From the NCBI GenBank assembly GCA_039589315.1, contig JBDHHQ010000013.1, forward strand, positions 128,001 through 192,000: DNA of 64,000 nt, in the 5' to 3' direction. The notes under the pieces were generated by a model. It saw nothing but the letters and a program-made list of their open reading frames with translations. It was not told the DNA's origin and ran no database searches. This DNA comes from Gemmatimonadota bacterium. GTDB lineage: Bacteria; Gemmatimonadota; Gemmatimonadetes; Longimicrobiales; Gaopeijiaceae. Below, piece by piece: positions 19,939 to 48,455 of the stretch (within the stretch, counting starts at the first letter, position 1; the number at the start of each line of letters is the position of its first letter). Position numbers and translations under genes: made by a program.

Positions 19939-20082
19939 CGCGGGTGTGCGATCAGAATGTGAATTCTACTTATTGCCGTCGGAACCCGGACGAGCCCCGC
20001 TTGCGCCGGTAGGAAGCGCGAGATCGGGGCAGCATGAGCCAACAACTCTGCGTAAGCGGACTCTTCCATAGGAGCGTGAGAC

Positions 20083-21150: not shown

Positions 21151-21155
21151 CTCCG

Positions 21156-24199: not shown

Positions 24200-24200
24200 A

Positions 24201-31282: not shown

Positions 31283-32815
31283 CTAACCCTGGGCGGTGGG
31301 ATCCGGACCCGGCCGGCCGAGCTCGGCCTCGACGGCTTCACGGATGGGATCCACCGACGTTCCGAATCCGTACACCCGGCCGACTTCCCGCAGCTCTCGA
31401 TCCAGGATCACCGTGTACGGCAGGCCCCGGTAGCCGTACCGCTCCTTCAGCTTTCCGCCACCGCGGGCGTTGGGATACCCCACGCCCCCGATCTCCCGCA
31501 GGAAGTCCCTGCCCTCGCCCGCTACGACGTCCTCGTTCAGGCCGATGACCGAGACCTCGGAAGGGTCCAGGCCGCGGGCCCACGCATCCAGCGCGGGCAT
31601 CTCCCGACGGCATGGCCCGCACCAGCTGGCCCAGAAGTTGATCACCACCACCTTGCCCCGGTGATCCGCCAGGCGCAGGACGCCTTCTCCGTCCAGGCTC
31701 GGCAGATCGAACGGCGCGAAGGCCACCCGGTCCGGCGCAGCCGTCCGGGACAGCACCTCACTGGGCTCCAGGCTGTAGACGTGGCCCGAAGGAGACGCGA
31801 AGATCGCCGCACCGGGCTCCACCGCACCCGTTCGCAACAGCTCCCCCGTGGGCTCGAACACCAGCAGCACGTCCGCCCGGCCCAGAGCGGGCTCCGAGGC
31901 TGCCAGCACGTAGATCAAACCATCCGGACCTACCACGACCCCGTACTGGACGATCTCGAACTCCGGCGTGACTTGCCCCTCCACTGCCTTCAGGCGCGGC
32001 ACGGCCGGTGGCGTCAGGGGAAGCCAGCTACTCCGCCATGTCGGGTCCCCGTCGGCGTCGAACCGGTGAAGCTCGGGCCGCAGTGCCGAGGCGTACAACA
32101 CGGTCCCGCCGTCCCCGATGGTGGCCCAACCGGCGTTGGCCAGGTGGCCCAGGAATGGCGTTGGTGGAGTCGCCACGCGCCCCACTGGTCTCGGCTGATC
32201 ACCGTCGTGTAGCCAGAGCAACGGATCTCGCTTTCGCACCGGGCCCATGTTGAACTCCAGCACGGTGCGGGTGGCGACGCCCAGGCCATGGGCCCCGGCG
32301 GTCACCGGGCCGGGGAGCCCCGATTCCGTCCAATGGTCCGGCAGGCCGTTCAGGAAGACGAGCGCGGAGCCGTCGGGCTCGACGGCCGACACGCTGCCAT
32401 CCGCCCCGACCACCACGAATGCGGGCCGTGCCAGGTGCCGACCGTCTTCCGGCGCTCCCTGGAGGATTCCGCTGACGTAGCCCCGGTCGTCCAGGAGCAG
32501 AACCCGGCCCCCCTGCGTGTCCGGCCAGGCGGAGCCGCCGTCCCTCAGACCGGCAGCCGCTCGACCGTCCATGAACAGCAGGCGCGCCGGGGTCTCCGGC
32601 GCCTGTCGGTAGATGCGCAGTCGCTCCGCTGCGGAGCGGTTGGTCACGACCGTCGTCCCGTCCCGCTGCCCGACCTCGGGCGGCGTGAACGCCTCGGCCG
32701 CGTCCGCCACGGGGCCCGGCCCGCCGTCGGAGCACGCCGCCAGGAGCAGCAGCGCGAGAAGGCCGGGGCCGAAGCCCCAGCCTTCCCGGTTCGGTCTGAG
32801 TGACCGGATCATCAT
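31283..32815 (-). CDS. Lipoprotein: N-terminal beta-propeller-like region fused to TlpA/ResA thioredoxin
   Basis: Lipobox [13 protein letters not shown] and SPSGHVYSL blade motifs; [30 protein letters not shown]. Confidence 0.82.
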
Positions 32816-32822
32816 CTTCCGC

Positions 32823-33209
32823 CTACATTTCCACGCTCTCGATGATAATCGTGTGCATGCCGCCACGCTCGATGGCCTTGCCCTTGACGGTCACCGCGTG
32901 CTCGGCGTGGGGCCTGAGCCGCTCGTTGTCGCCGGCGCCGGGCATGGCCTGGCTGACAGGCAGGTACAGGGTGCCGTCCTCGGCCATCAGGCCGAGCGGC
33001 ACACCGCGATCGGCGCACACCTGGGCGCACTCGCGGTGCATGTCCCCCTCCAGGCCGTACACGACCTTGCAGGACAAGTCCACGACGTGGGCCGTGAACT
33101 CCACGTCCTCGCCCTCTGCCATCTCGGGCATCATGTCCTGGGCTGAGGCGGGAACGGCGCTCAGGGCCACGAAGGCCAGCGCCAGGAAGCTCAGTGAGAG
33201 TTTCCGCAT
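32823..33209 (-). CDS. Small exported protein with DxxC..HxxCAxxC motif (putative OB-like metal-binding protein)
   Basis: GGAGGTGA RBS; signal peptide ..[43 protein letters not shown]. Confidence 0.75.
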
Positions 33210-33330
33210 TGGATCACCTCCAACGACTCGTGATGAAGTCCGGCGCCGAGCCTCGTGCCCGGGCGCCAAAGTCAGGTCACCGGCGCGTTGCGCCACTTCG
33301 TGCGCGGTCCCGCTGCCTGATTGCGACCTG

Positions 33331-33996
33331 CTACCGCGGGCCATGGCCCCCATGAGAACCGGGATCGACCAACCCGTCGGAGGCGGTCGTTCCGGAGTGA
33401 TCTCCGGGTGACGCATGGTGCCGGTGCTCGTCCTCGCTACCGGCATCCGACGGCTCGTCCCCCCCGGGGTTCCGGTGATCGTGCTGGGGGCCCGCTTCAG
33501 TGGATGGAGCTCCACCGTGGTGCTCATGGCCCGTGGATCCCTCCGGTGCCGCTACGTCCAACTCGAACACGGCCGCGTCCGCACCGTAGTCGAGGTTCAC
33601 GTAAAGCTCCCAGAGGCCCTCCATGGGGATGTCCACCACTGCCCGGTAGTGGGCTACGCTCGACGCCTCGGTCTCGTAGCGCACGATGCCATGCATGGGC
33701 ATCTCGGGTGAGACCAGGTCCAGCGACAGTGGCAAAACGTCTGGGGGGGCTTCGCCGAGGGCGATCTCGAGCCGGACCGGACCGGGCCGGAGGGGAAGAG
33801 GATCCGCGGAGACGCTGACCTCGACGCCCGAGGTGGACGCCGCCGTCCACGCGTCCCCGCTTGCCAAGTCGGGGGCCGGGGCCTGGTCTCCCTCGGACAG
33901 AACCTCGTCCGCTACCCCCGATGTACATGCCACGCCCACGAGGACCAGCACGGCCCCGGTCATCAGCTTCGAGTTCGTTCGCCCGGTCTTGTTCAT
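33331..33996 (-). CDS. YtkA/FixH-like lipoprotein with His-rich C-terminal tail
   Basis: Lipobox GVAC; LDLVSPEMPMHG and YRAVVDIPMEGLWEL resemble the YtkA-like Ig fold; tail GHEHH/QHDH/EHRHH/SHGGH. Confidence 0.7.
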   Translation of the reverse strand: MNKTGRTNSKLMTGAVLVLVGVACTSGVADEVLSEGDQAPAPDLASGDAWTAASTSGVEVSVSADPLPLRPGPVRLEIALGEAPPDVLPLSLDLVSPEMPMHGIVRYETEASSVAHYRAVVDIPMEGLWELYVNLDYGADAAVFELDVAAPEGSTGHEHHGGAPSTEAGPQHDHRNPGGDEPSDAGSEDEHRHHASPGDHSGTTASDGLVDPGSHGGHGPR

Positions 33997-34254: not shown

Positions 34255-35304
34255 TCAGCGGTCGTGGGAGTCGTCCGCATACACCCTGTCGGGGTCGAGC
34301 ACGACCCGATAGCGAACGAGTGCGCCCACGGGAGGTGCTGGGTGGGGCGCGCGAACCTCCAGCGTGCCCGCCGGCGTGCCGATGGCCGCGACGGCGCCGG
34401 CCGACCCGTGGGTCACGGCGGTCACCACGCCGGAGTAGGGGCCCTCATCGACCGCGATCACGCCCGACAGGCCCAGCACGGCCACCGCGCCACCGGCGCG
34501 CACCCGGACGGGTAACGGAAGGCGCCCGAGAGCGCAGTTGAACGAGCCGGCCTCCACGTGACCCGTCACCTCGTTCCCGAGACCCAGAAAGCGGGCGACC
34601 CGAAGAGACCCCGGCCGACTGAAGAGCTCGTCGGGACCTGCGACCTGCACGAAGCGGCCGTCGATCAACACGGCGATGCGGTCCCCGAGCCGGCCGGCCT
34701 CCTCCAGGTCGTGCGTGACCAGGACGATGGCCGGCCGGTACGCCTGCCGCGTCGCCCTGATGCTCTCGCGGACCTCGCCGCGGAGCGACGGATCGAGCGA
34801 GGAGAGCGGCTCGTCGAGAAGGAGCAGCGCGGGTCGGGCCACGACCGCCCGGGCCAGGGCGACGCGGTGGAGCTGGCCCCCGCTGAGGGTGCCGGGCCTC
34901 CGGCCCTCCATGCCGGACAGTCGCACGGCCGCCAACGCCTGCAGCACCCGCGGCAAACGGTCGTGGTGCGGGACGCCCCGCACCCGAAGCGGGAAGGCCA
35001 CGTTCTCTCCGACGGTCATGTGGGGGAACAGCACGGGAGACTGGTGGAGGTAGACGGCATTCCTTCGCTCGGTGGGCTCGCCCGTCACGTCGCGCCCGTC
35101 GATCTCCACCGTTCCCGCCTGGACTGGGGCCAGGCCGGCCAAGGCCCGAAGCAGCGTGGACTTGCCCGCCCCGGAGGTTCCCACGACCACCAGGAGCTCC
35201 TCCGCGACCACGTTGAACGAGATGTCCTGCAAGCCGGCCTCGGCGCCGAAGTCCGCTCGGAGTCGGTCCACCGTCAGGACCGCGGCCGCCTCTCCCGGGC
35301 TCAC
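34255..35304 (-). CDS. ABC transporter ATP-binding protein (YnjD/PotA-like)
   Basis: GTSGAGKST; LSGGQ; LLLDEPLSSLD; VTHD; GTG overlaps the permease stop. Confidence 0.93.
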   Translation of the reverse strand: MSPGEAAAVLTVDRLRADFGAEAGLQDISFNVVAEELLVVVGTSGAGKSTLLRALAGLAPVQAGTVEIDGRDVTGEPTERRNAVYLHQSPVLFPHMTVGENVAFPLRVRGVPHHDRLPRVLQALAAVRLSGMEGRRPGTLSGGQLHRVALARAVVARPALLLLDEPLSSLDPSLRGEVRESIRATRQAYRPAIVLVTHDLEEAGRLGDRIAVLIDGRFVQVAGPDELFSRPGSLRVARFLGLGNEVTGHVEAGSFNCALGRLPLPVRVRAGGAVAVLGLSGVIAVDEGPYSGVVTAVTHGSAGAVAAIGTPAGTLEVRAPHPAPPVGALVRYRVVLDPDRVYADDSHDR

Positions 35305-36158
35305 AGCGCCAGGGCCTGGGTCCGCCGAATGGCCAGGCCCACGAGACCCAGAGCCAGGATTCCAGGGAGGGTGAGAAGGACGGCCCCGGTGGCCGCCAGT
35401 GCGTCCTGTCCGGCGCTCATGTAGGAGAAGACCTCCAGCGGTAATGTCGGAACGGCGCCCTGACCGACCAGCACCGTCAGCGGGACCTGGGCCCAGGAGA
35501 CCAGGAAGCCCAGCAGGAACGCCTCCATCAGGGGCCGACGCAGGAGGGGTAGCGTGATCCGCGCGAGGACCTGGACCCGTGTCGCGCCCAGCGTCCGGGC
35601 GCATTCTTCCACGCTGTCGTCGAACGCGGTGAAGATCCCCAGGAAGAAGAGGGCCGTGTAGCCCGTGGCGGGGATCAGGTGCGCCAGCAGCACCCCCACG
35701 AGGGTGCCGCCCAGTCCGAAGGCCAGAAAGGAGAACTGGAGACCCACCGCGAGGGCCACGGGCGGTGCCGCCACCGGGAGAAAAGCCGCCCCTGCTCCGA
35801 GGGCCCGGCGCCAACCCCGGAGTCGGGCCAGGGCGCGGCCGACGGGCATGCCTAGCGCGGCGGAACCCACACCCGTGGAGACGGCCAGGACGACGCTCGT
35901 CGCGCTGGCTCTCGCGAGTCGGCCCGCGGCACGGAACACCTCGCGCCACGCCTCCATCGTGAGCTCCGTCGGGAGCAGATCCGGATAGAACCACCCGCGA
36001 CTCACCGACCCCATGGCCAGCAGCGCCAGGGGCCCGACCGCCGACAGGGTCAGGCCCACGATCAGGATACCGCGCATCGCCGCCAGGAGCGGATTCGCCA
36101 GCACCAGCGGTTGCGAGGGGCCCGAGGTCGCCCGTCCCGGGCTGGCCGCGGCCCTCAC
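35301..36158 (-). CDS. ABC transporter permease (YnjC C-terminal-half-like)
   Basis: WFYPDLLP; EECARTLGA EAA loop; multiple TM helices. Confidence 0.9.
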   Translation of the reverse strand: MRAAASPGRATSGPSQPLVLANPLLAAMRGILIVGLTLSAVGPLALLAMGSVSRGWFYPDLLPTELTMEAWREVFRAAGRLARASATSVVLAVSTGVGSAALGMPVGRALARLRGWRRALGAGAAFLPVAAPPVALAVGLQFSFLAFGLGGTLVGVLLAHLIPATGYTALFFLGIFTAFDDSVEECARTLGATRVQVLARITLPLLRRPLMEAFLLGFLVSWAQVPLTVLVGQGAVPTLPLEVFSYMSAGQDALAATGAVLLTLPGILALGLVGLAIRRTQALAL

Positions 36159-37045
36159 GAGTGCCCCTCGGGCCCGCGAGCCCGCACCGCCTCGTGAGCC
36201 ACCACGGCCAGGGCCGCCAACCCCACGCCCAGGAGCACGAGTACGTAGGCGTCGCCCCGCTGCGCCAGGGCGCTGGCCGTGTACCGCTCCATCGTGAGCA
36301 ACGGCAGCGCCAGGGGGTCGGACGGCGCCATGAGCGCCGTCGCCTCATACGTTCCGGCGACGAACGCGAACACGGCGACGACACCGGGGAGCATTCCCCT
36401 CAGGAGCAGGGGCAAGGTGACCCACCGCAGCACGTCCAGGCGTCGGGCGCCGAGGCTCCGGGCGGCCTCCTCGAGGGCCGGGCCCCGGGCGGCGAGGACG
36501 GAGAAGGCCACCAACCCCAGAAACGGGAGCTCCTTCCACGTGAGTGTCAGGATCAGTCCCCAGCCGGCCGTATCGTACACGAGCGCTGGCATGTCTCCCG
36601 GCGAAGCGATCCAGCCCAGAGCGTGGGCGCCCCGGGCGAGGAGGCCGCTCTGGCCCAGAACCAGCACGCCGCCCACGGCAGCCGCGATATGGGGGATGGG
36701 CAGCGGCAGGATGGTCAGCGCCCGGGCCCAACGGTCGCCGCGCCCCCAGCCCCGGAACGAGACCGCCACGACCACGGCCCCGGTGGTCGCGAGGAAGGTC
36801 GACGCCGCCGCGACCCAGAGCGACCATCCAGCCCCCGCCCAAACCGCGCCCTCCGAGAGCACCCTCCAGACCCGTGACGCTCCGGCGGACCCGGCACCGG
36901 GCCCTACGAACCCGACGGCGCCGGCGGCGGCGTAGGCCACGCCGACCAGGACCGGGGCGGCGACTGCCAGGGCCGCCAGCAGGCCCCACGTGGCTTCGCG
37001 CCCGGCAGGCACTCCGCGGCGGCGTCCCTCGGGCGACTCGCTCAT
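36155..37045 (-). CDS. ABC transporter permease (YnjC N-terminal-half-like)
   Basis: LPIPHIAAAVG; QSGLLAR; WKELPF; EEAARSLGA EAA loop. Confidence 0.9.
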   Translation of the reverse strand: MSESPEGRRRGVPAGREATWGLLAALAVAAPVLVGVAYAAAGAVGFVGPGAGSAGASRVWRVLSEGAVWAGAGWSLWVAAASTFLATTGAVVVAVSFRGWGRGDRWARALTILPLPIPHIAAAVGGVLVLGQSGLLARGAHALGWIASPGDMPALVYDTAGWGLILTLTWKELPFLGLVAFSVLAARGPALEEAARSLGARRLDVLRWVTLPLLLRGMLPGVVAVFAFVAGTYEATALMAPSDPLALPLLTMERYTASALAQRGDAYVLVLLGVGLAALAVVAHEAVRARGPEGHS

Positions 37046-38289
37046 CTACCCACGGGCCGGATCCGCCGCCGCCAGTCCTCCGCGAGCCGTTCATGGTATT
37101 CGGGCGCGACCTCGGGGAGGGCGTAGCGCTGGAGCGAGTCCGCGGGGAGCGCCCTGGGGTCCTGCTCGAGAGCCTGGAAGCGGCGGCGCCATGGCTCGGG
37201 GAGGCGGGCCGGGTCCAACACCGTTCCGTCGCCCCAGACCCCCGGCTCGGCCTTCTCGAGCTGCGCCTCGGGCGACAAGAGGAAGTCGGCCACCACCATG
37301 GCGCCCTGGGGATTGGGGGCGTTGAAGGGAATCCCCAAGTAGTGGGCATTGGCGATCGTACCCTCCCTGAGCAGCAGTGGGCGCGCCGTCTCCGGAAACA
37401 GCCCTTGCCGGACCTTCGTGGTCACCTCGTTGTGGTTGTTGGACATCGTGAAATCCACCTCGCCGTTCGCGAACAGGCGGTGCAGCTCGGCCACGCCACC
37501 CGGGTAGGCCCTTCCCCCGCGCCAGAAGCTGTCCCGGCGGGCCTCGAGCCACTCCAGGGTACGGTCCCGTCCCCGCAGGTACGCCACGTCGTCGAAGCCG
37601 CCCTCGAACGCCTCGACACCCCCGGACAGCGCGTACATGAGGATCTTGAGAAACGTGACGCCGGTGAACGACTGGTCGTGGCTGAAGCGCCCCGGGTGCT
37701 CGTCGATCCACTGCGCCAGCTCCGCCACCGTGCCAGGAGGATCCGGCGTGCGCGCCTCGTCGTAGATCAGCGCGAACTGGACGCGTCCCCACGGTGACTC
37801 GAATCCCTCGGGATCCTGCTCGAAGTCGCGCATGACGATGGCGGAGGCGCTGTCCACATAGGCCGCCGCCGGAATCCTCTCAGCCCACGGACCCCACAGC
37901 AGCCCCTCCTGACGGAGATTGTGGAAGGTCTCTCCGTTGATCCACACCAGATCGGCCCGGCCACGCGCCCCCGCCTCCCGCTCGACCACCAGTTGATTCA
38001 CCACCTCGGGGCCCCGCCCGTCCACGACCCTCAGTCTCAGGTCGTAACGCTCCTCGAGCCTCGGCGCCACCCAGTTCTCCACGTAGGTGTTGATGGCGGG
38101 GTCGCCCCGCCACATCCGCCATGTCACCTCGCTTCCGCGGGCAGCGGCGACGATCTCGGGCCAGGGCAGCGACGCCACCTCTCCGGGGGCGGGCGGAGTG
38201 TCGTCGCGGCAAGCCGTGAGGGTCGTCAGCGCCGCGATCAGCAGAAGCACCCGAGCGCAGATCCCGTTGGCGCCGTCAGGCTGTCGCAT
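37042..38289 (-). CDS. ynjB: ABC transporter substrate-binding lipoprotein, YnjB family
   Basis: Lipobox LTAC; WRGDPAINTY, DLVWINGETF, ESPWGRVQF, FTGVTFLK, GTIANAHYLGIPFNA, VVADFLLSPEAQLEKAEPGVWGDGTVLD match motifs I recall from YnjB. Confidence 0.82.
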   Translation of the reverse strand: MRQPDGANGICARVLLLIAALTTLTACRDDTPPAPGEVASLPWPEIVAAARGSEVTWRMWRGDPAINTYVENWVAPRLEERYDLRLRVVDGRGPEVVNQLVVEREAGARGRADLVWINGETFHNLRQEGLLWGPWAERIPAAAYVDSASAIVMRDFEQDPEGFESPWGRVQFALIYDEARTPDPPGTVAELAQWIDEHPGRFSHDQSFTGVTFLKILMYALSGGVEAFEGGFDDVAYLRGRDRTLEWLEARRDSFWRGGRAYPGGVAELHRLFANGEVDFTMSNNHNEVTTKVRQGLFPETARPLLLREGTIANAHYLGIPFNAPNPQGAMVVADFLLSPEAQLEKAEPGVWGDGTVLDPARLPEPWRRRFQALEQDPRALPADSLQRYALPEVAPEYHERLAEDWRRRIRPVGR

Positions 38290-38455
38290 GGCCCGTCGAT
38301 TGGGGTGGCCGGCCCGGCCCGAGGCGGAGAAGGCAGGAAGGTCCCTCCATCGCCCGAGGCCGGGGGGGGCAGGGCCGGCCCACGCTACTGCCGCGAGGGT
38401 GCGGTGGGCGGATCCACTGGTCCCCTCGAGCCTGGTCATCGCCCGCGGGGGGCGT

Positions 38456-41290
38456 TCAGAACGCGTACCGCACCGAAAGCTGGACCTGACGCGGAGGCGC
38501 CGCTGTCGTGTAGGCGATGGGGTCACCGGGCCGCCCGACCTGGGTCCTGGGCCCACCTCCGGGTATCCCGTTGGCGAAGCCCGTGTAGTTGGTCGCATCG
38601 AAGACGTTGAAGACGTCCGCTCGGAGCTCGAGCAGTGTCTCCCCGAGAAAGAGACGATAGGCCCCGGTGAGGTTGAGGAGAAAGGCCTGGGGAAGGCGCT
38701 CCTCGTTACGCGCCACGCCCGAGAACCGATCGTGGTTGCCCACGAAGCCGTTGCCGAAGATCGGACCCGATCCGTCCAGATCCCGGAAATGGGCGACCCG
38801 GTTGATTGGCGTCCCGGTCTGGAAGTCGGCAATGCCACCCAGTGTGACGTTGGGGGTCGGGCTCCAGAGCCCACGAACGGTCACATGGTGTCGGCGGTCG
38901 TTGATGGCGTGGGCCCACTCGTCGTCGAACTCGTTGCCTTCGAAGGCCTGGAAGTTGATGTCCTCCGTATCGGTCTTCGTGCTGGACAAGATCCAGTTCG
39001 CCTCGAGCGTCACCTCGTCGGCCACCCGGCCTCGCGCCATGACGTAGAGCCCCAGGTACCGGGCCCGGCCGCCGGAATCGGTGGTCGTCAGGCGCCGGAA
39101 GCCGCCCGGCTCGGGGGTGACGGGTCGGTACTGGTCCCCGAACTCGGCTGGGCGATCCACGGTGTCGGCCGGCGTGAGCCGACGCTGGATGGCGTTAAGG
39201 TCCAATGAGCGTGGGAGGTTCCAGGTTTCGGACCAGACGCCATCCACCGCCACGGCCCATGTGTCGCCGAGCTGTCGCTGGAAGCCCGCGGTGGCCTGGC
39301 TCGACATGGGCTGCTCGAGGCCGTTGGCGAACATGACGCGCATCTCCCGAGGCGGAAGCTCGTCTTGCAGGCCTTCGAGATCCTCGGCCGTCGGCCCCTG
39401 CAGGAAGGGTGGCGGCGGGAAGACCTTTCCCTCGAAGGTCACCACCGCATTCCCGTCTGGGCCGAACTGGACCGCGTCGGAGTACACGGCGTACGGGAAC
39501 TTCCCCGCGTAGAGTCCCCATCCTCCCCTCAGCACCGTGTTCGGGGTGGCGTACCAGTTGGCCGAGACCCTGGGCTGGAAGTTGTCGAGGTCGGGGCGGC
39601 TCTGGCCTCGGGACGTGATGTCGTCGTAGTCCCACCGGACGCCGCCCTGGATCGTCAGAGACGGAGACACCCGCCAGACGTCCTCCACGAACGCGCCCAC
39701 CAACGTCTGGGTCAGGTCTACCTGCTGGGGGTTCGCATCGATGGTGTAGCTCGACACCCGGACGTCCACGGGGATGTCGGTGATCGACAGGAATTCGCCC
39801 GACGCTTCGATGTTGCCCTCGTTCACCACCGTGTAGGCCCCCGTGGGGTTGGTGGACGACCCTGTGAGCTCGAACCCCGAGGACACGACGTCGGCACCCA
39901 GCCGGAGCGTGTGATCCCGACCGATGCGACTCTCCAGCACGTCCTTGAGCTGTAGCTGCACCTCGGTCTCGTCGAAGATGAAGTTGCTCGATCCCACCAC
40001 CGCCTCCACCGTCGTCTCGTCCTGCGCCACGACGGTGGTCTGCGGCGTCTGGAAGTCGCTGGCCGACGGTGGAAAGAACCAGCGGAAGGTGCCCAGCTGC
40101 ACCGACAGCTCGTTGCCTGCCCTCCCGGCACGGAAGGCGGATCGGTGGGTGAGGCTGGTCAGGCTGCCGATCCGCCGGGTGGTGATGTCGGCCTCCGGCA
40201 CCACCACGCCCGACCCCTGACCCTCGCGGCTCACGTCACTCAGAGCGAAGCGAAGCGTGGTGGCCTGGGACTCGCTCCAGATCTGGTCCACGCGCAGGAA
40301 TGCCTTCCAGGTCCGACGCAGCTCCGTCCCCAGGAACTGGGTGCGGGCCGTTGACCCGATCCGATCCTCCTTCTCGTCGCCGAATTCCAGCGCCGCGAAC
40401 AGGTAGGTGCGATCCCTGACCAAGGGCCCACTGATGGCACCGCCCAGCTGCGTTCGCTCGAAGCCCTCGGGATCGGTCCCGGCCGGTGCGAACTCGGGCT
40501 CCGAGTCCAGCGGAATGCCGGGACGGCGGAATAGGAATGCCTCGCCCGACCACCGCTCTCCCCCCGCGAGCGTCTCCACGTTCACGACGCCGTTGGAGCT
40601 GCGTCCGTAGGCCGGGCGATACGAGTTGGCCATGAGTGCGAGGCGTCGCATCCCGGCCAGTGGGATGTCCACGCGCGGCCCACCGAGGAACCCTTCGTTG
40701 TTGTCCAGACCGTCGACCAGGTACTGGGTGTAGAGAGAGTTGGCCCCGTTCACGGTCAGGACCGGGGCGTCTCCGAAGAATCCGGTGGACTGGGAGACAC
40801 CGGGGAGGTTGTAGGCCAGCGCCCACGGGTTCCGTGAATCCGTGGGAAGCCCCGCCAGCTCCGTCTCTTCCAGTGTACCGCCCGTCGCGGCGTCCTCGGT
40901 GTTCAGCAGTGGCCGCTCCCGACGGCCCGTCACCGTCACCGCATCCAGCGTGTAGAGCTTCGCCAGCGTGACCGCCATCTCCTGTCGCTGACCGGCAACC
41001 TGAGGCGGCACGGCAGCCTCCTCGGGGAGGAACCCCGGCGCGCTGAAGGTGACGACACCGCCTTCCCCGGCGGGAACCACCAACACGAACCGGCCGGAGC
41101 CGTCGGTGATCGTCTCGTGGGCGCCCGGATCGAACGCGACGCGCACACCTTCGAGCGCGATTCCGACCTGGGTGCGCACTAGACCGACCAGCTGGGCGCG
41201 GTCCTGTGCCTGCAACACCGCAGGCCATGACAGGGCCATTCCTACCGACAGGGCAGCGACGACTCGGCGGCGTGACATCGGGGTCGGCAT
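38456..41290 (-). CDS. TonB-dependent receptor (Oar-like, N-terminal carboxypeptidase-regulatory-like domain)
   Basis: Signal peptide; TDGSGRF; LDAVTVTG TonB box; YLVDGLDNN; YGRSSNGVVNV; GVRWDYD; PRQVQLSVRYAF C-terminus. Confidence 0.92.
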   Translation of the reverse strand: MPTPMSRRRVVAALSVGMALSWPAVLQAQDRAQLVGLVRTQVGIALEGVRVAFDPGAHETITDGSGRFVLVVPAGEGGVVTFSAPGFLPEEAAVPPQVAGQRQEMAVTLAKLYTLDAVTVTGRRERPLLNTEDAATGGTLEETELAGLPTDSRNPWALAYNLPGVSQSTGFFGDAPVLTVNGANSLYTQYLVDGLDNNEGFLGGPRVDIPLAGMRRLALMANSYRPAYGRSSNGVVNVETLAGGERWSGEAFLFRRPGIPLDSEPEFAPAGTDPEGFERTQLGGAISGPLVRDRTYLFAALEFGDEKEDRIGSTARTQFLGTELRRTWKAFLRVDQIWSESQATTLRFALSDVSREGQGSGVVVPEADITTRRIGSLTSLTHRSAFRAGRAGNELSVQLGTFRWFFPPSASDFQTPQTTVVAQDETTVEAVVGSSNFIFDETEVQLQLKDVLESRIGRDHTLRLGADVVSSGFELTGSSTNPTGAYTVVNEGNIEASGEFLSITDIPVDVRVSSYTIDANPQQVDLTQTLVGAFVEDVWRVSPSLTIQGGVRWDYDDITSRGQSRPDLDNFQPRVSANWYATPNTVLRGGWGLYAGKFPYAVYSDAVQFGPDGNAVVTFEGKVFPPPPFLQGPTAEDLEGLQDELPPREMRVMFANGLEQPMSSQATAGFQRQLGDTWAVAVDGVWSETWNLPRSLDLNAIQRRLTPADTVDRPAEFGDQYRPVTPEPGGFRRLTTTDSGGRARYLGLYVMARGRVADEVTLEANWILSSTKTDTEDINFQAFEGNEFDDEWAHAINDRRHHVTVRGLWSPTPNVTLGGIADFQTGTPINRVAHFRDLDGSGPIFGNGFVGNHDRFSGVARNEERLPQAFLLNLTGAYRLFLGETLLELRADVFNVFDATNYTGFANGIPGGGPRTQVGRPGDPIAYTTAAPPRQVQLSVRYAF

Positions 41291-41448
41291 GCTCCGGGAG
41301 ATAGCGGCGGGTCTTCGGCATCACAATGCCCGCTCTCGGCCTCCCGGTTCCCGACCGCGCCCGAAGCGAGGGTCGTTGCGACGCCTGGCGCGGTTGAGGA
41401 TGTTCGAGCCATGTCACGGACTCCTTCGACCGTGGGACGGCAGCGGCG

Positions 41449-42750
41449 ATGACGGCCCTGGCTGGCCTTGACGTGGGCACGACCGCGGTGAAAGCCGCCG
41501 TGTTCGACGGGGACGGGCGCGTGCTGCGATCGGCACGGCGGCTACTTCCCCGCCTCGAGATCCGTGGGCCGCGGGCGTGGCAAGACCTCGATGGGGTCAT
41601 CGCGGCCGTGGAGGCGGCTCTCGAGGACGTCCGCCGCCAGGGACCGATCGATCGCGTGTGCCTGGCGACCCAGCGCGACACGGTCGTTCTGGTCGACGAT
41701 GCCGGCGCTGCGCTCACCCCGCTGGTGTCGTGGCGCGACCGGCGTGATCTGGTCCACGGCTCCCTCTGGGACGCTTTTGCCGAAGAGGGAGACGTGCTTC
41801 GCGGGGCGGGGAGCGTCCGCTCTCTCGCCTCCCACCTGACCTCGCGGTGGGTCGGGCGGGCGGTAGAGGCAGCGGGCACTGTGCCTCGCCACCTGTGGGG
41901 ATCGGCGCTCGATCGAGTTCGGGCCGTCGGACCGCTTGCCCTGGCGCACCCCGAAGTGGTTCCCGTGGGAAGCGCGGTGGGTGCGGTGACCGGCTCGGTG
42001 CTGCACGTGTGCGGTGGCGACAAGAACTGCGAGCTACTGGGAAGCGGGGTGACGTCGGCCGGAAAGGGGGCGCTCTCCCTGGGATCCGCCATCGGCCTGG
42101 GAATGCTGGCTGATGGTTCGACGGACCCACCGGCCGGCGTGGTGCTCACCCACGCTTCGATTCCTGGGCGCTGGAACGTGGAGACCGGCCTGGCCGGCGG
42201 CCTGGAGGGTGAGCGGTTCCTACGGGACCTGGCTCCTGTGCTCCCACCGCTCGCAAGTCAATTCGTCCTTGCGGGGATGATCGCCCCGTACTTCGCTGGG
42301 GCCCTCGACGCACCTGAGGCACTCCCGCTCTGCGACGGTATCGGCGACTCGACCCCTCCCGAAGTCGTGCACCAGGCCTGGACTCAGGGGGTGCTGTGCG
42401 AGCTGCGCCGTCTTCGCCCAGCGCTCGAGACCGCGGCCGGGAGCCCACTCGAGGACCTCGTCGTCACAGGCGGGCGGGCGGCGGACGCCGCCTGGGTTCA
42501 GTTGGCAGCCGACGCGCTGCAGCTCCCCACCCGACCGCTGGCGGATCCATGGGCGGGCGCCCGTGGCGCCGTCGCGGCCGCCCTGACGGCGGAACCCCCA
42601 GAGCGGTCGGAAGCATTCCTTCGACGTGGGGCCGCGCTGGCCGAACCCTGTCGTCCCGACCCCCGACGTGCCGATGATGTGGCCCGCTACTACGATCGGT
42701 GGATGGCCCTGAGCGACGTAGCCCGCAGTCGGAGCGGACAGCACCCATGA
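41449..42750 (+). CDS. FGGY family carbohydrate kinase (compact, divergent)
   Basis: GLDVGTTAVKAAVFD; TQRDTVVLVD..PLVSWRDRR; GGDKNC; LSLGSA; VVTGGRA. Confidence 0.85.
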   Translation: MTALAGLDVGTTAVKAAVFDGDGRVLRSARRLLPRLEIRGPRAWQDLDGVIAAVEAALEDVRRQGPIDRVCLATQRDTVVLVDDAGAALTPLVSWRDRRDLVHGSLWDAFAEEGDVLRGAGSVRSLASHLTSRWVGRAVEAAGTVPRHLWGSALDRVRAVGPLALAHPEVVPVGSAVGAVTGSVLHVCGGDKNCELLGSGVTSAGKGALSLGSAIGLGMLADGSTDPPAGVVLTHASIPGRWNVETGLAGGLEGERFLRDLAPVLPPLASQFVLAGMIAPYFAGALDAPEALPLCDGIGDSTPPEVVHQAWTQGVLCELRRLRPALETAAGSPLEDLVVTGGRAADAAWVQLAADALQLPTRPLADPWAGARGAVAAALTAEPPERSEAFLRRGAALAEPCRPDPRRADDVARYYDRWMALSDVARSRSGQHP

Positions 42751-43628
42751 AGCCGGTTCAGATCACGCGTCGCCCCCATGATCCCCTCGACGATCCGCCG
42801 GGCGCCCCACGACTACCCGAGATCCTGTTGTACCCGGGCAACCGCTGCAATCGGGATTGTCACTTCTGTTGCGTCGACGGGAGCCCCGGCGGCTCCTTCG
42901 CTCCGTTCGCCCTGGACGCGCCGGAGCGGCTCGTGCAGTTGATACAGCCGGGAGCTCGAATCAAGCTCTACGGCGGAGAGCCCACCCTGCATCACCGGTA
43001 CTTCACCGGCTTCATCCGCGACCTTCGGCGCCTGGGATATGTCGGGCGCCTGACGGTGTTCAGCAACGGCGTCCAGTCGCAGCGGCTCATTCATATGTTG
43101 GAGGCCGACCCACCCGCCGATCACCACCGCGGCACCGACGCGTACCTGAACCACTACGTCTGGCATGGAGACGGCGTCGAGCCGATACCACCCGGTCGTC
43201 GGGCCGAGCTGCAAGCCTGGGGCACCGCCAACCCCGGCCGGCTCTGGCTGGGGCACGAGGACGTGCTCCAGGTGGGAGGCGCGGCCCGTCACACGTCCGA
43301 CGACGTCGCTGGTCGGCCCGACTTTCGAGGGCGGTGCGCTCGTTGTCACCCCACCATGAAGAGCGACGGACGGATCCACGCGTGCGCCTTCGCGGTTGAG
43401 GTGGAGGCGGCCCAGTACGATCTCGGTACGATCGCGCAGTCGCCCTGGCAGCTGCGAGCCCGTCGCCAGCGCTTCCTCAGGTGGGTCGACGAGGTCTTGG
43501 AGCCTGCGGCCGCGGACCGCGAAGAGCACCCGTGCGTAACCTGCCTCCGGTGGGCGCGGGCGGAGACCGAAGGCGGGACCGCACGAACGCTCCCGGTGCT
43601 CCGACCGGAGCTGGTGCCAGCTCCTTAG
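42747..43628 (+). CDS. Radical SAM protein with C-terminal Cys cluster (SPASM/twitch-like)
   Basis: CNRDCHFC (CxxxCxxC); YGGEPTL; FSNG; C-terminal CARC..DGRIHAC..LGTI..CVTC; ATGA overlap with kinase stop. Confidence 0.88.
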   Translation: MKPVQITRRPHDPLDDPPGAPRLPEILLYPGNRCNRDCHFCCVDGSPGGSFAPFALDAPERLVQLIQPGARIKLYGGEPTLHHRYFTGFIRDLRRLGYVGRLTVFSNGVQSQRLIHMLEADPPADHHRGTDAYLNHYVWHGDGVEPIPPGRRAELQAWGTANPGRLWLGHEDVLQVGGAARHTSDDVAGRPDFRGRCARCHPTMKSDGRIHACAFAVEVEAAQYDLGTIAQSPWQLRARRQRFLRWVDEVLEPAAADREEHPCVTCLRWARAETEGGTARTLPVLRPELVPAP

Positions 43629-43731
43629 ACGGCGCGTCGGACCCACGTGTGCCGAGGCCCTGACCCTCGCCGCCTCGCCGCGCTGGTTGGGGGCCTACCA
43701 CTCCCGCGAGCTGCCGCGTCGCGAGGCTACA

Positions 43732-44343
43732 CTAGAGGTAGCGTACCGCCCAGACAATCCTCTGGAGCGTGCTCAGCCCCACGAGGAGGGCCAGCACCGT
43801 GAACAACGGGATCAGCCGGTCCGGAAAGAGCAGGAACAGGCCGTAGAACACCATGGTCTCGGTACCTCCGACGATCCCGGCCGGCATGGAGACGGTTGTC
43901 TGCTCGGCCCGCTCCCGCGCGCCCCGGTTCCGCTTCTCCAGGATGGCCGAGAGCACCGTCCAGCTCGCCGCGTTCACGTAGAACGTGGCCAGCATGACGG
44001 CCAGGGTCAGGTACAGCAGCTCGGACGCGGGCCGGGAGAGCACCAGGCCCAGCGGCACCAGCGCGTACACGAGGAAATCCAACACCAGGTCCAGGTAGCC
44101 GCCCAGGTCACTCTGTGTCCCGTGGACTCGGGCGGTCACGCCATCCAACCCGTCGAGGAACCGGTTCCCCACCCAAGCGAGCAGAGCCCAGCCATAGGCC
44201 TGTCGGAGGCACAGGACGAAGACCGCGCCCCCCAGCATCAGGGCGAGGAGCGTGATGAGGTGGGGATGCACGCCGGGCCCCAGCGCCCTGGCGGCCGGGG
44301 CGAGCAGACGGTCCTTGAAACCGCGCAGAGCGTCGTCCAGCAT
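43732..44343 (-). CDS. ynjF: CDP-alcohol phosphatidyltransferase family protein, YnjF-like
   Basis: [30 protein letters not shown] (DxxDGxxAR..GxxxDxxxD); MLD start, [11 protein letters not shown] and GTET recall YnjF. Confidence 0.85.
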
Positions 44344-44473: not shown

Positions 44474-46156
44474 ATGAGCGATCCGCGCTTCATCTACGTG
44501 ATGAAAGGGCTCGGCAAGATCGTTCCGCCGAAGCGGAAGATCCTCGAGAACATCTGGCTTTCCTTCTTCCCGGGCGCGAAGATCGGCGTCGTGGGCGCCA
44601 ACGGCTCGGGCAAGAGCTCGCTCCTCCGCATCATGGCAGGCGAGGACACCGACTTCATGGGCGAGGCGTGGGCGGCCAAGGGCACCGGCGTCGGATATCT
44701 GCCCCAGGAGCCCCAACTCGACCCCGAGCTCGATGTCCAGGGGAACGTGGAGCTCGCCGTCCAGGAGACGCGGGACCTTCTCCGGCGCTACGACGAGATC
44801 AACGCCGCCTTCGCCGAGCCCATGTCCGACGGGGAGATGCAGTCGCTCATCGACCGACAGGCCAAGGTCCAGGACGCCATCGACGCCGCGAACGCCTGGG
44901 ACCTGGATCGCAAGATCGAGATCGCCATGGACGCGCTCCGGTTGCCGCCGCCGGACGCCGACGTCAGCACGCTCTCCGGCGGCGAGCGGCGGCGGGTCGC
45001 GCTCTGCAGGGTGCTGCTCGAGGAGCCGGACATGCTGCTCCTGGACGAGCCCACGAACCACCTGGACGCCGAATCGGTGGCTTGGCTCGAGCGTCACCTG
45101 GCAGAGTTCCCCGGGACCATCGTGGCCGTGACCCACGACCGCTACTTCCTGGACAACGTGGCCCAGTGGATCCTCGAGCTGGACCGGGGAAAGGGGATCC
45201 CCTGGGAGGGCAATTACTCCTCGTGGCTCGAGCAGAAGGAGACGCGTCTCTCCCGGGAAGAGAAGGAAGGCTCTGCCAGGCGGCGCACCCTCGAGCGCGA
45301 GCTCGAGTGGATCCGGATGACGCCCAAGGGCCGACACGCCAAGGGGAAGGCCCGCATCAACGCCTACGAGGAGCTCCTCGCGCAGGATGAGCGGGAAAAG
45401 GTCGGAACAGTGGAGATCCTGATTCCGGCGGGCCCCCGATTGGGCAGGGACGTCATCGAGTTCGAGCACGTGTCCAAGGGCTACGGAGACGTCCAGCTCA
45501 TCGACGACCTGTCGTTCACCGTTCCCACGGCGGCCATCGTGGGCGTGATAGGCGCGAACGGCGCCGGGAAGACCACGCTCTTCCGGATGATCACGGAACA
45601 GGAAGGACCCGACAGCGGCACCATCCGCCTGGGCTCCACCGTCCAGCTTGCCTACGTGGATCAGAGCCGGGACGCCCTGGACGGTGACAAGACCGTCTGG
45701 GAGGAGGTCTCGGGCGGACTCGACCAGATCACCCTGGGCAGAGCCGAGGTGAGCTCACGGGCGTACTTGTCGTGGTTCAACTTCCGGGGCACCGATCAGC
45801 AGAAGAAGGTCGGCGTGCTGTCCGGAGGGGAACGGAACCGGGTGCACCTGGCCAAGCTGATCAAGACCGGAGCCAACGTGATCCTCCTGGACGAGCCGTC
45901 CAACGACCTGGACGTGGACACGCTGCGCGCCCTGGAAGACGCGCTGTTGGACTTTGCCGGCTGCGTCCTGGTCGTGTCACATGACCGCTGGTTCCTGGAC
46001 CGGATCGCCACGCACATCCTTGCCTTCGAAGGCGAGAGCCAGGTCCGCTGGTTCGAGGGCAACTACCACGAGTACGAAGCCGACCGGCGGCGCCGCTTGG
46101 GCGCAGAGGCGGAGCAGCCCCACCGGATCCGCTACAAGAAGCTGGTGCGGGGCTGA
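44474..46156 (+). CDS. ettA: Energy-dependent translational throttle protein EttA (ABC-F)
   Basis: [44 protein letters not shown]; two ABC domains; [22 protein letters not shown] end. Confidence 0.96.
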
Positions 46157-46327
46157 GGGTCCCTGACTCCGGCCCCGGCGCCGTGACGATGTGGAGCGCC
46201 CACGACCCACCGGCACCCGCCCCGTCCATGGGTCGGGGATGATCCGGGACACCGCCCGCCCGGCGACCGGTCCCCCCACGGAAACCGGCGCCGGGCCCCT
46301 CGTGGCGGGAGGGATCGCGCTGGGCTG

Positions 46328-46768
46328 TTACGCCTGACGACTGAGCAGGTCGCGGATCTCGGTCAGCAGCTTCTCCTCGGCCGACGGCTCGGGCGCGGCC
46401 GGCGGCGCCTCCTCGGCTGCTTCCTCCTCGCGCTTCATCTTGTTGAAGCTCCGGACCACCATGAACACGGCGAACGCCACGATCAGGAACGAGATCAACG
46501 CGTTGATGAAGACCCCGTAGTTGATGGTGACGGCCCCGGCCTCCTGCGCCGCCGCCAGGGTCGCATACGGCCCAGCGGGGTCGCCGGCGGACAGAGTGAT
46601 GAACAGGTCGGCGAAGTCTACGCCCCCCATCATCAGGCCGATGGGAGGCATGATGACGTCGTTCACGAGCGACGAGATGATGGTCCCGAACGCCGCTCCG
46701 ATGATGATGCCGACGGCCATGTCCAGCATGTTGCCCTTGACCGCGAACTCCTTGAACTCCTTGAGCAT
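46328..46768 (-). CDS. mscL: Large-conductance mechanosensitive channel
   Basis: [62 protein letters not shown]. Confidence 0.97.
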
Positions 46769-47052
46769 TCCTCCTCCTTCTGACCCGGGATCTGTTCCAC
46801 GGCCGCCCCACCACCAGACCTCGATTGTCCTGACCGGTCTTCCTACCCGCAAGTCACATTGGGGGCCCAGCCTCCGTCATCGCCAGAGCTACCTGGGCGG
46901 GAGCGCGCTGCAGCCGCCCGGCCGGCGGAGTTCGCCGGTGGCCGGCCTCGATTGCCGGGCCTGCAAGGATCCCGGTGCGTGGGTCCCGGGTAGGGCATCT
47001 CGGTGACCACGGGGTCACCGCTCGATTCTGCAACCTCAACCGGTGGAAGCCA

Positions 47053-47466
47053 ATGCGTTGTTCGGCTCGCGTGTTCGGTCTCGGCAGCCTCGCGATCGTC
47101 GTGGGATCCGTCTCCGGCGTGGTGGCGGCCTCGGAGACGGGTCTGCACCTGGCTCTGGAGAAGTCGTCTCCGGCCGAGGATGCAGTCCTCGACAGCGCGC
47201 CAACAGAGATCCGCCTGTTCTTTTCCCAGGAGCCACAGGCCGCAGGGACCTCTCTGCGCCTCATGGCCGCCGACTCGACCCGCGTCTCCACCGGCGACCC
47301 AGAGCCCTCGGCGGACGACACCGCGGTCTTCTCGGCTCCAGTGACCGGCGCGATGCCCGACGGGTCGTACACGGTCGTCTGGCGCGCGATGGCGAAGGAC
47401 GGACACGTGGTTCGAGGCGAGTTCTCCTTCACGCTCGTTGCGGCCGACGGCGCCCCGGACCGCTGA
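47053..47466 (+). CDS. copC: Copper resistance protein CopC
   Basis: HLALEKSSPAEDAVL..APTEIRLFFSQ..YTVVWRAMAKDGHVVRGEFSF. Confidence 0.9.
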   Translation: MRCSARVFGLGSLAIVVGSVSGVVAASETGLHLALEKSSPAEDAVLDSAPTEIRLFFSQEPQAAGTSLRLMAADSTRVSTGDPEPSADDTAVFSAPVTGAMPDGSYTVVWRAMAKDGHVVRGEFSFTLVAADGAPDR

Positions 47467-47522
47467 CCGGCGCCGGGCCGATGGCGCGTCATCCCGGCGC
47501 CTCCTCTCTGCGGGCTTGAGGC

Positions 47523-48455
47523 GTGGCCACGGACTCCCCTCTGGCACTGATCGGCCGGTGGCTCCTCTTCTCGGGCACCCTTGCCTGGGTCGGAGCCGGG
47601 ACCGTCCGGTGGGGACTGCTCCCCGTGTGGTCCCGCGGCGCTGGATCCCCCGAGCCCCTTCGGGGCGCGCTGACCCGTGGGGCGGCTCGCGCCGGCGTCC
47701 TGGGCGGCCTCTTCCTGCTGGCCGGAGTCGTGTCCCGGCTGCAGACGCAGGTCGCCGACTTCGTCGACCCCTTCGACCCCGCCGGCCCTCAGGTCCGCCT
47801 GCTACTGACGGCCACCCTGTGGGGCAAGGTGTGGATCACGCAGGCCCTGCTCACCGCGGTCGGCCTGGTGGCCTTTGTGGCCGTGTTGGCGGGGCGGGGA
47901 AGGGTCGGGTGGGGTGCGGCTGGTGTGGCCGCCGTGGGGGTGGGTGCGATGCCGGCCCTCTCGGGGCACGCCGTCGGCAGCGAGAGCCTCACTACGCTCG
48001 CCGTGCTGGCCGACGTGCTTCACGTGCTGGCGGCGGGCGCCTGGATCGGGGGGCTGCTCGTCGTGGTAGCCGCGGTGGCATCCGGCCGAGCTTGGCGTGC
48101 GGACCCCGCCGGTCGAGCTCAGGTAGCCCGGCTGATCGGCCTGTTCTCGCCCATGGCGCTGGCGGCCGCGGCAGCGATCGTGGTCACCGGCCTGTTCGCC
48201 ACCTGGCTCCACCTGTCCAGCGTGGAGGCCTTCCTGGGCACGGGGTACGGACTCGCCGTCCGCCGGAAGCTCATGCTCGTGGCCCTCGTGTTGGGGGCGG
48301 GCGCCTACAACTGGCGGCGCGTGAAGCCCAGGCTCGCGGACCCCGGGGGGCCCGACCGGTTGCTGCGGTCGGCGATCCTGGAGCTGATCCTGGCGGGGCT
48401 AGTGCTGCTGGCCACTTCGGTGCTGGTGGTGACTCCGCCTGCCATGGACATGTGA
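47523..48455 (+). CDS. copD: Copper resistance membrane protein CopD
   Basis: LSGHA; DVLHVLAAGAWIGGL; FSPMA; TGYG..RKL; LGAYNW; lies after copC. Confidence 0.88.
   Translation: MATDSPLALIGRWLLFSGTLAWVGAGTVRWGLLPVWSRGAGSPEPLRGALTRGAARAGVLGGLFLLAGVVSRLQTQVADFVDPFDPAGPQVRLLLTATLWGKVWITQALLTAVGLVAFVAVLAGRGRVGWGAAGVAAVGVGAMPALSGHAVGSESLTTLAVLADVLHVLAAGAWIGGLLVVVAAVASGRAWRADPAGRAQVARLIGLFSPMALAAAAAIVVTGLFATWLHLSSVEAFLGTGYGLAVRRKLMLVALVLGAGAYNWRRVKPRLADPGGPDRLLRSAILELILAGLVLLATSVLVVTPPAMDM

Follow-up and report, generated by a model that had tools for sequence, protein, structure and literature searches.

An extended ynj-type locus in a Gemmatimonadota bacterium combines a YnjBCD-type importer with an outer-membrane receptor, a YnjF-type transferase and a kinase–radical SAM cassette

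Gene content and layout of the locus

The locus described here belongs to a Gemmatimonadota bacterium and lies in a 64,000-nucleotide stretch of contig JBDHHQ010000013.1 (the window, whose coordinates are used throughout), where eight genes between positions 34,255 and 44,343 encode an outer-membrane receptor, a YnjBCD-type ABC importer, a kinase, a radical SAM enzyme (rSAM) and a YnjF-type CDP-alcohol phosphotransferase. The importer is of a known type, itself an orphan system, which is here accompanied by a kinase–rSAM cassette with an rSAM of an unnamed family. The eight open reading frames are all intact and contiguous, and Pfam and NCBIfam models bear out each of the family labels proposed in the initial annotation. 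Their arrangement is less uniform than a contiguous gene set might imply, as the genes are not co-directional and fall into three orientation blocks. The minus strand carries the receptor, the binding protein, the two permeases and the ATPase; the kinase and rSAM genes lie on the plus strand, and ynjF is again encoded on the minus strand. The eight genes are not one operon.

The first block comprises the TonB-dependent-type receptor (38456..41290; 944 aa; PF25183, PF00593, PF07715 and PF13620, with the plug domain scoring just below its cut-off), the YnjB-family substrate-binding lipoprotein (SBP; 37042..38289; 415 aa), two ABC permeases matching PF00528 and a PotA/YnjD-like ABC ATPase (34255..35304; 349 aa; PF00005, E 1e-33; 35% identity to YnjD over 186 aa). 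The permeases correspond to the N-terminal half (36155..37045; 28% to residues 60-237) and the C-terminal half (35301..36158; 30% to residues 368-492) of E. coli YnjC. The importer genes, from the SBP to the ATPase, overlap one another, and the start codon of the latter was placed from its 4-base overlap with the stop of the upstream permease. The second block consists of a divergent, shortened FGGY-fold kinase (41449..42750; 433 aa; PF00370 and PF02782, both above cut-off) and the rSAM (42747..43628), whose genes overlap by 4 bases. The kinase is head-to-head with the receptor across a gap of 158 bp, and the rSAM is tail-to-tail with ynjF (43732..44343; 203 aa) across 103 bp.

The two cassette genes have a lower GC content at third codon positions (GC3) than their flanks, 0.77 and 0.80 versus 0.85-0.91, which places the kinase at the 0.2% and the rSAM at the 3% percentile of 470 genes, a ranking biased by a gene caller that rewards GC3. 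No convincing repeats were found at the cassette junctions. The Rfam scan of the window returned no match, and hence no riboswitch clue; the sigma-70 promoter scan returned no site, and terminator-like sites are as frequent as expected (3 seen, 2.9 expected). As had been noticed at the outset, no homologue of YnjA or of the rhodanese YnjE was found in the window, and YdjXYZ are likewise not in the locus.

The receptor, the YnjBCD importer and YnjF

YnjBCD and YnjF are long-standing orphans of E. coli K-12 that are present across many phyla. Using the K-12 proteins from the annotated record as queries, the SBP is found to be 35% identical to YnjB over 345 aa, and it scores 396 bits against NF008633/PRK11622 (cut-off 203), so that by sequence it is a member of the YnjB family. 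It has a lipobox-like Cys27 and no cysteine downstream, and an alignment of 55 sequences evidences many conserved tryptophan and phenylalanine residues. The protein scores only 15.7 bits with the PotD model (cut-off 582), has no match among thiamine-binder models or PDB sequences, and in the ESM Atlas matches only generically named clusters; it thus appears to stand apart from the characterised polyamine and thiamine binders, with which a grouping had been considered. The literature lists YnjBCD as uncharacterised (PMC9207381, PMC13131330) or gives YnjB, in a table entry only, as a homologue of a polyamine SBP (PMC9397018). No YnjB ligand was named within the reach of our literature search, which did not extend to supplements, nor was anything relevant present in the accessible parts of a selenoprotein preprint (10.1101/2022.07.06.499078) and of PMC13077682.

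The transferase matches PF01066 and is 34% identical to E. coli YnjF over 204 aa (E 7e-17). It carries at residues 64-89 the full signature of CDP-alcohol phosphotransferases. Its best NCBIfam models are inositol-type synthases, every one of them far below cut-off. From the signature, the full-length similarity and the position beside a YnjB importer, the protein is assigned as YnjF-type, and the proposed assignments to YnjB and YnjF are both upheld by these comparisons.

We have examined how far this gene set extends in the phylum, using 400 other genomes and up to ~10 kb on each side of the YnjB matches, which occur in 19 of them. An orthologous receptor (43-64% identity) is present at 18 of the 19 loci, and so are the permeases and ATPase; YnjF is found at 14, a FAD-dependent disulfide oxidoreductase at 11, DedA at 8, AhpD-like genes at 3 and DUF547 at 1, and neither tblastn nor hidden Markov models (HMM) detected the kinase or the rSAM of the cassette beside YnjB at any of the 19. 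On these gene orders the receptor is a dedicated partner of YnjB in the phylum. YnjF is co-directional in all 14 cases: in 11 it follows the ATPase, and in the other 3, two of them from the window's own family, it lies immediately ahead of the receptor. Because of this last arrangement, the locus is best read as a ynjF–receptor–ABC order whose first two genes were probably parted when the kinase–rSAM cassette was inserted in reverse orientation.

Beyond the phylum, the SBP has matches in 76 plasmid records. Among the 8 inspected, a CDP-alcohol transferase stands beside the importer in 4, a FAD oxidoreductase upstream in 4 and a TonB receptor in 2; Pseudoalteromonas has receptor, FAD oxidoreductase, DUF547, YnjBCD and CDP-alcohol transferase in a single run. 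The receptor, YnjBCD and YnjF thus make up a widespread variant which is not confined to the window's genome.

Some of the plasmid loci have features of their own. A Chondrinema litorale plasmid (L221:4990-13440) carries an operon of DUF2064, TonB receptor, YnjBCD and a radical SAM gene; the latter was considered as a relative of the window rSAM and rejected, being of a different, unrelated family in the same slot (pairwise E 0.056). On an IncC plasmid (L224:5692-11081), a DedA/FAD-oxidoreductase fusion, a SelD-associated-like oxidoreductase, YnjB and one permease form a run that is cut by IS26 and adjoins a resistance region, and YnjB matches of near-identical score recur on several enterobacterial plasmids.

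The kinase–radical SAM cassette

Both FGGY domains of the kinase score above cut-off and Asp8 and the catalytic Asp191 are invariant in an alignment of 16 sequences, which assigns it by sequence to the FGGY kinase family. In agreement, its structural model (pLDDT 91) has the FGGY fold, with a TM score of ~0.8 to xylulose, glycerol and gluconate kinases. The subfamily is rare, being found in 1 of 300 order-level genomes, where the remaining matches are generic FGGY kinases of at most 230 bits. The sole kinase fusion encountered, an unrelated 1473-aa multidomain protein, was set aside.

The rSAM scores slightly below the cut-off of PF04055 (27.5 versus 29.5 bits), but its motifs and partial barrel establish it as a member of the radical SAM superfamily: the CxxxCxxC cysteines (C34-C38-C41) and the GGEP motif (G76-G77-E78-P79) are invariant. 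Five further cysteines (C197, C200, C213, C263 and C266) are kept in more than 95% of 157 sequences and are probably ligands of a second cluster of Twitch/SPASM-like type, although no SPASM Pfam match was obtained. The model (pLDDT 89) has EpeE (Z 15.5), anSME (13.5), BtrN (12.0) and SpeY (11.7) as nearest folds, at 14-19% identity only, and these matches give no substrate. No specific NCBIfam model fits and ESM Atlas matches fall only in generically named clusters; the enzyme defines an unnamed family. Besides the protein itself, a word search gave 33 homologues and a profile search 30 clusters at E <=1e-30; none occurs in the 400 other genomes of the phylum or, at E 1e-10, in plasmids, and DUF547 is the only recurrent fusion partner among 19 proteins scanned. 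An assignment as ArsS was rejected, with TIGR04167 (cut-off 300) missing from the NCBIfam matches, no DUF3641 and a pairwise E of 0.019. The idea that the family simply replaces ArsS was also discarded, since both coexist at one locus (L006) and in all five cyanobacterial genomes tested; ArsS was not found in five other rSAM carriers.

The neighbourhoods of the family were compared at 160 loci, of which 80 come from genomes (the best among 184) and 80 from a metagenome scan (the best among at least 107). Many of these are short and many are kin, and the counts derive from tblastn and HMM matches; the rough composition-based gene caller misses some genes. A YnjB importer adjoins the rSAM at 29 of the 160 loci, in three separate clades of the tree: that of the window, a cyanobacterial one and one formed by L139, L143 and L155 (sister L148, with a receptor upstream). 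At four of the five closest loci (51-58% identity, among the 160) an FGGY kinase lies directly upstream of the rSAM. L085 carries a co-directional run of ArsR-family regulator, receptor, SBP, permeases, ATPase, kinase and rSAM, L086 has ATPase, kinase and rSAM, and the genome of L005 holds receptor, YnjB and permeases on a separate contig.

The kinase varies from locus to locus: it is of FGGY type at 4, of APH/choline-kinase type at 19, where it heads the cyanobacterial operons, and a split PEP-utiliser/PPDK_N phosphotransferase at two (L073:2916-11241 and L077:1430-9762), which run from a rhodanese through an ABC importer and a rifamycin-phosphotransferase/PEP-synthase-like pair to the rSAM and ArsN2. 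The importer is swapped as well. At L083 an APH-type kinase stands directly before the rSAM and behind a PhnD/PhnE phosphonate-type importer with an O/P porin, and L006, the fifth of the closest loci, has ArsS, an ArsM-like methyltransferase and the rSAM, then PhnS-like SBPs accompanied by metallophosphoesterases, followed by ABC genes and, at a greater distance, ArsN2. That the rSAM acts on a compound which has been imported and phosphorylated is most strongly indicated by the filling of one slot with three unrelated kinase folds, and on these gene orders the occurrence of the cassette beside an importer is no accident. The succession of import, phosphorylation and radical modification postulated in the initial annotation is in this respect supported and withstands the refutation test set there, since the association of the cassette with ynjB recurs; that with ynjF does not, as no YnjF orthologue was seen at any of the 160 loci, many of which are short, so that YnjF may sit elsewhere in those genomes. 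Two CDP-alcohol transferase HMM matches at rSAM loci were dismissed, being PssA-like and placed after a psd-like gene.

DUF547 is fused to, or beside, the rSAM at 104 of the 160 loci (L007-L164; Binatia, Thermoanaerobaculia/Multivorans and others), which offers a lead for the function of this domain; in the genomes of this group that were tested, ArsS was not found. At one of these loci (L033:10918-12465) and ~20 related ones, the DUF547–rSAM fusion is immediately followed by a conserved ~510-aa protein that has no Pfam or NCBIfam match. Glycosyltransferases of TIGR04282/04283 lie near the rSAM at 20 loci, in several clades. An 'ArsC' match at L045 was rejected as arsenic evidence, being a nitrogenase-associated protein.

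Cargo, rival explanations and relation to known systems

In the scheme proposed here, a compound that is small, polar and scarce would cross the outer membrane through the receptor; YnjB, the two permeases and the ATPase would move it into the cytoplasm, where YnjF may place a phosphatidyl (or other CDP-activated) group on a free hydroxyl and so convert it into a lipid head group. The rare cassette would add a second fate for the same cargo: the kinase, acting before the rSAM, would trap it by forming a phosphate ester, which the rSAM, an enzyme that probably has two Fe-S clusters, would oxidise or cleave. That YnjF acts on the cargo as imported is suggested because most importers have YnjF and no cassette, and that the cassette phosphorylates and radically converts it because there are also importers accompanied by the cassette and lacking YnjF. 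Both are present in the window. With no YnjF at the 160 rSAM loci, we infer two branches, i.e. alternative fates and not a linear pathway. It is likely that the genes share one substrate.

As to the nature of this cargo, guilt by association tentatively makes an arsenosugar-type organoarsenical the leading candidate; an organo-arsenic sugar had first been offered as a speculative possibility and now receives indirect support from ArsS, ArsM-like, ArsN2 and TIGR04282/04283 neighbours. The compound could be an organoarsenic sugar, scavenged from the surroundings, whose synthesis is begun by ArsM and ArsS; a dimethylarsinoyl-riboside and the corresponding glycerol glycoside are examples. In AsSugPL lipids a phosphatidyl group is attached to the glycerol arsenosugar, which makes them a natural product for a CDP-alcohol transferase. 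On this reading YnjF would produce an arsenosugar phospholipid, and recycling or remodelling of the sugar would fall to the cassette. In the literature, arsenic is adenosylated by radical SAM chemistry when arsenosugars are synthesised, and arsenosugars of cyanobacteria are described (PMC12159101); glycerol and phosphate arsenosugars are named together with AsSugPL lipids (PMC10456119), and arsN2 genes were defined from ars operons (PMC6465285). No description of the uptake, lipid-forming or turnover steps of arsenosugars, and no paper pairing any two of DUF547, DUF2064, TVP38, DUF3641, TIGR04282 and TIGR04283, came up in a search that most subscription papers lay beyond.

The association is best illustrated by L006, where ArsS scores 421 bits (cut-off 300), the ArsM-like methyltransferase 212 (263) and ArsN2 149.8 (125), and by the ArsN2 of L077 and L073 (126.4 and 122.5, same cut-off). 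The ArsR-family regulators ahead of the cyanobacterial operons have a C-terminal Cys-Cys pair in 7 of 8 cases, and in AfArsR and SpArsR it is C-terminal sites of similar pattern that respond to As(III) or MAs(III) (PMC11868830). Compared with PDB sequences, these regulators match NmtR and HlyU best, with an arsenic-responsive ArsR in seventh place. A glyceraldehyde-3-phosphate dehydrogenase gene beside YnjF/YnjB in Aliiroseovarius was considered as further arsenic evidence and rejected, not being of the ArsJ-associated type (265 versus 450 bits).

In the host genome no ArsS above cut-off was found, the best TIGR04167 score (74 bits) coming from another gene. One contig (C31:13328-16542, L219) encodes a TIGR04283 glycosyltransferase followed by an 825-aa fusion of a rSAM/SPASM-like and an ArsM-like methyltransferase part, the latter with 241 bits to PRK11873 (cut-off 263), and it is possible that this pair stands in for ArsS and ArsM. 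Another contig (C30:14621-18194, L220) has in one run a FAD disulfide oxidoreductase, a DedA–DUF547 fusion (501 aa) and TIGR04282, the same genes that flank YnjB importers in relatives; split AhpD-like pairs are found on contigs C29 and C74, and rhodanese genes are likewise on contigs other than the window's. Across the phylum sample, ArsS occurs in 29 of 400 genomes and TIGR04283 in 124 (one, G212, unpublished). Only 1 of the 19 genomes with YnjB has TIGR04283 versus 5.9 expected (pooled P 0.010, family-stratified P 0.048), which weakly indicates a make-or-take pattern, as the genomes are kin and kinship overstates the signal.

Several observations weigh against an arsenosugar cargo, or against the general scheme. 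ArsS is adjacent at only 1 and ArsN2 at 3 of the 160 rSAM loci, and no arsenic-specific gene was seen in the window or beside the 19 YnjB loci of the phylum. The exclusion of ArsS from genomes with YnjB is not significant (0 of 19 versus 1.4 expected; pooled P 0.38, stratified 0.49), the host genome is itself an exception to the make-or-take pattern, and E. coli, taken as control, has YnjBCD with neither ArsS nor TIGR04283 above cut-off. The E. coli ynj operon is activated by FNR (PMC3688515). The regulator of L085, the locus closest to that of the window, has no Cys-Cys pair, and the mature SBP could not bind As(III) via thiols because it has no cysteine. It is NCBIfam that labels TIGR04282/04283 as 'arsenosugar biosynthesis', and we found no paper in which this designation is tested. 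Finally, the 104 DUF547-linked rSAM loci show no importer or kinase match nearby, and four tested genomes with such a rSAM have no YnjB.

Other neighbours favour sulfur or selenium, and the main rival keeps the same architecture with a thio- or seleno-sugar or similar compound as cargo, the arsenic genes being fellow travellers in thiol/metalloid islands. E. coli ynjE, inside the ynj cluster, is a sulfurtransferase; rhodanese matches occur at 30 of the 160 rSAM loci and AhpD-like ones, which fit a selenoprotein family model below its cut-off, at 28; L073 and L083 have rhodanese genes. SoxY/SoxZ lie upstream in L085, with look-alike genes in L201, three rhodaneses precede YnjB in Ilyobacter, and a gene like the SelD-associated oxidoreductase precedes it on one plasmid (287 versus 310 bits). 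However, the rhodanese and AhpD loci are nearly all in one clade, and ArsS, the ArsM-like enzyme and ArsN2 are of arsenic type, ArsN2 recurring in two separate clades, so that we regard a sulfur or selenium cargo as somewhat unlikely.

A rare but otherwise ordinary cargo, such as a polyol, an aminocyclitol, a sugar derived from a nucleoside or a phosphonate, appears unlikely too. BtrN has dehydrogenase activity. The rSAM would here be a BtrN/SpeY-like dehydrogenase acting on the phosphorylated compound, with YnjF making an unusual phospholipid or solute, which agrees with the presence among the nearest folds of BtrN and of SpeY (titled 'Twitch Radical SAM Dehydrogenase'), with the inositol-type synthases that are the best, if far below cut-off, models for YnjF, with the phosphonate-type importers in place of YnjB in L083 and L006, and with the conserved aromatic residues of the SBP. 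Yet peptide-modifying enzymes score equally high in the fold comparison, where identities are low throughout, and the recurrent DUF547, TIGR04282/04283, ArsS and ArsN2 neighbours would be left unexplained.

A linear route, in which the cargo passes from kinase to rSAM and is finally coupled by YnjF to a CDP donor, had been proposed in the initial annotation and is now very unlikely: the three enzymes are adjacent in the window's genome, but YnjF is missing from the rSAM loci compared (with the reservation made for short ones), 14 of the 19 phylum importers have YnjF with neither kinase nor rSAM, and the rSAM family was not found in the 400 other genomes. That the cassette is present by chance or misassembly, as its reversed orientation, low GC3 and absence from those genomes might suggest, is hardly credible, being largely refuted by the importer–kinase–rSAM run of L085 and the ATPase–kinase–rSAM run of L086, along with the importer on another contig in the L005 genome and the independent rSAM–YnjB links in two further clades.

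Returning to the arsenosugar as cargo, the most far-reaching form of this reading is doubtful. In it, YnjBCD, the E. coli copy included, would import arsenosugars, YnjF would synthesise arsenosugar phospholipids, and the cassette would be a dedicated means of breaking down or remodelling arsenosugars, with radical chemistry directed at the C–As bond or close to it; bacteria would trade these compounds as a nutrient or membrane building block between makers (ArsM/ArsS/TIGR04282/04283) and takers. Were the arsenic reading true, the locus would supply the uptake, lipid-forming and turnover steps for arsenosugars. Independently of the element involved, the locus ties YnjBCD and YnjF to a dedicated receptor and to an unnamed rSAM family that has recruited kinases of three unrelated kinds and importers of three types or more. 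These links narrow the choice of cargo to small compounds that bear a hydroxyl group and are worth taking up, among which an arsenosugar is a concrete first candidate.

Beyond the locus, the housekeeping genes ettA (TIGR03719 above cut-off) and mscL flank it at 44474-46768. Two exported-looking proteins with no Pfam match, one with a His-rich tail and one with a CxxC..H..C pattern, are encoded on the minus strand at 31283-33996, upstream of a TlpA-like thioredoxin fusion; together with CopC/CopD at 46975-48455, this pair suggests metal-handling genes around the locus. A long co-directional run on the plus strand (13135-27809) encodes glutamine-amidotransferase-like, TPR/peptidase MA, DUF4159 and DUF4175-like proteins and, by resemblance, presumably also MoxR- and DUF58-like ones.

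Compared with E. coli ydjXYZ-ynjABCD, ynjE and ynjF (COG4134-4136), the window shares the YnjB family, both YnjC halves and YnjF, and differs in having the permease split into two genes, a longer ATPase, a dedicated outer-membrane receptor and the cassette, and in lacking YnjA (AhpD-like), YnjE (rhodanese) and YdjXYZ, although DedA and AhpD-like partners occur in relatives' loci and elsewhere in the host genome. In respect to the FGGY kinases XylB, GlpK and GntK, the window kinase is alike in fold, in the phosphate-1 Asp and in the position of the catalytic Asp; it has only 14-20% identity to the solved structures, is ~50 residues shorter and scores far under every equivalog cut-off (XylB, 64 versus 380), and its subfamily is distinguished by a conserved Cys three residues past the catalytic Asp. 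With the Twitch/SPASM enzymes EpeE, anSME, BtrN and SpeY, the rSAM has in common the partial barrel and a C-terminal Cys-rich extension (VIA-align Z 11.7-15.5), whereas the sequence match is limited to the SAM-cluster region. The ArsM/ArsS arsenosugar set (TIGR04167, TIGR04282, TIGR04283, DUF547, DedA, FAD oxidoreductase) provides neighbours common to the rSAM family and to YnjB importers, and ArsS, like the window enzyme, is a radical SAM protein with extra C-terminal cysteines; the context of the window rSAM is nevertheless import and a kinase, and not methylation.

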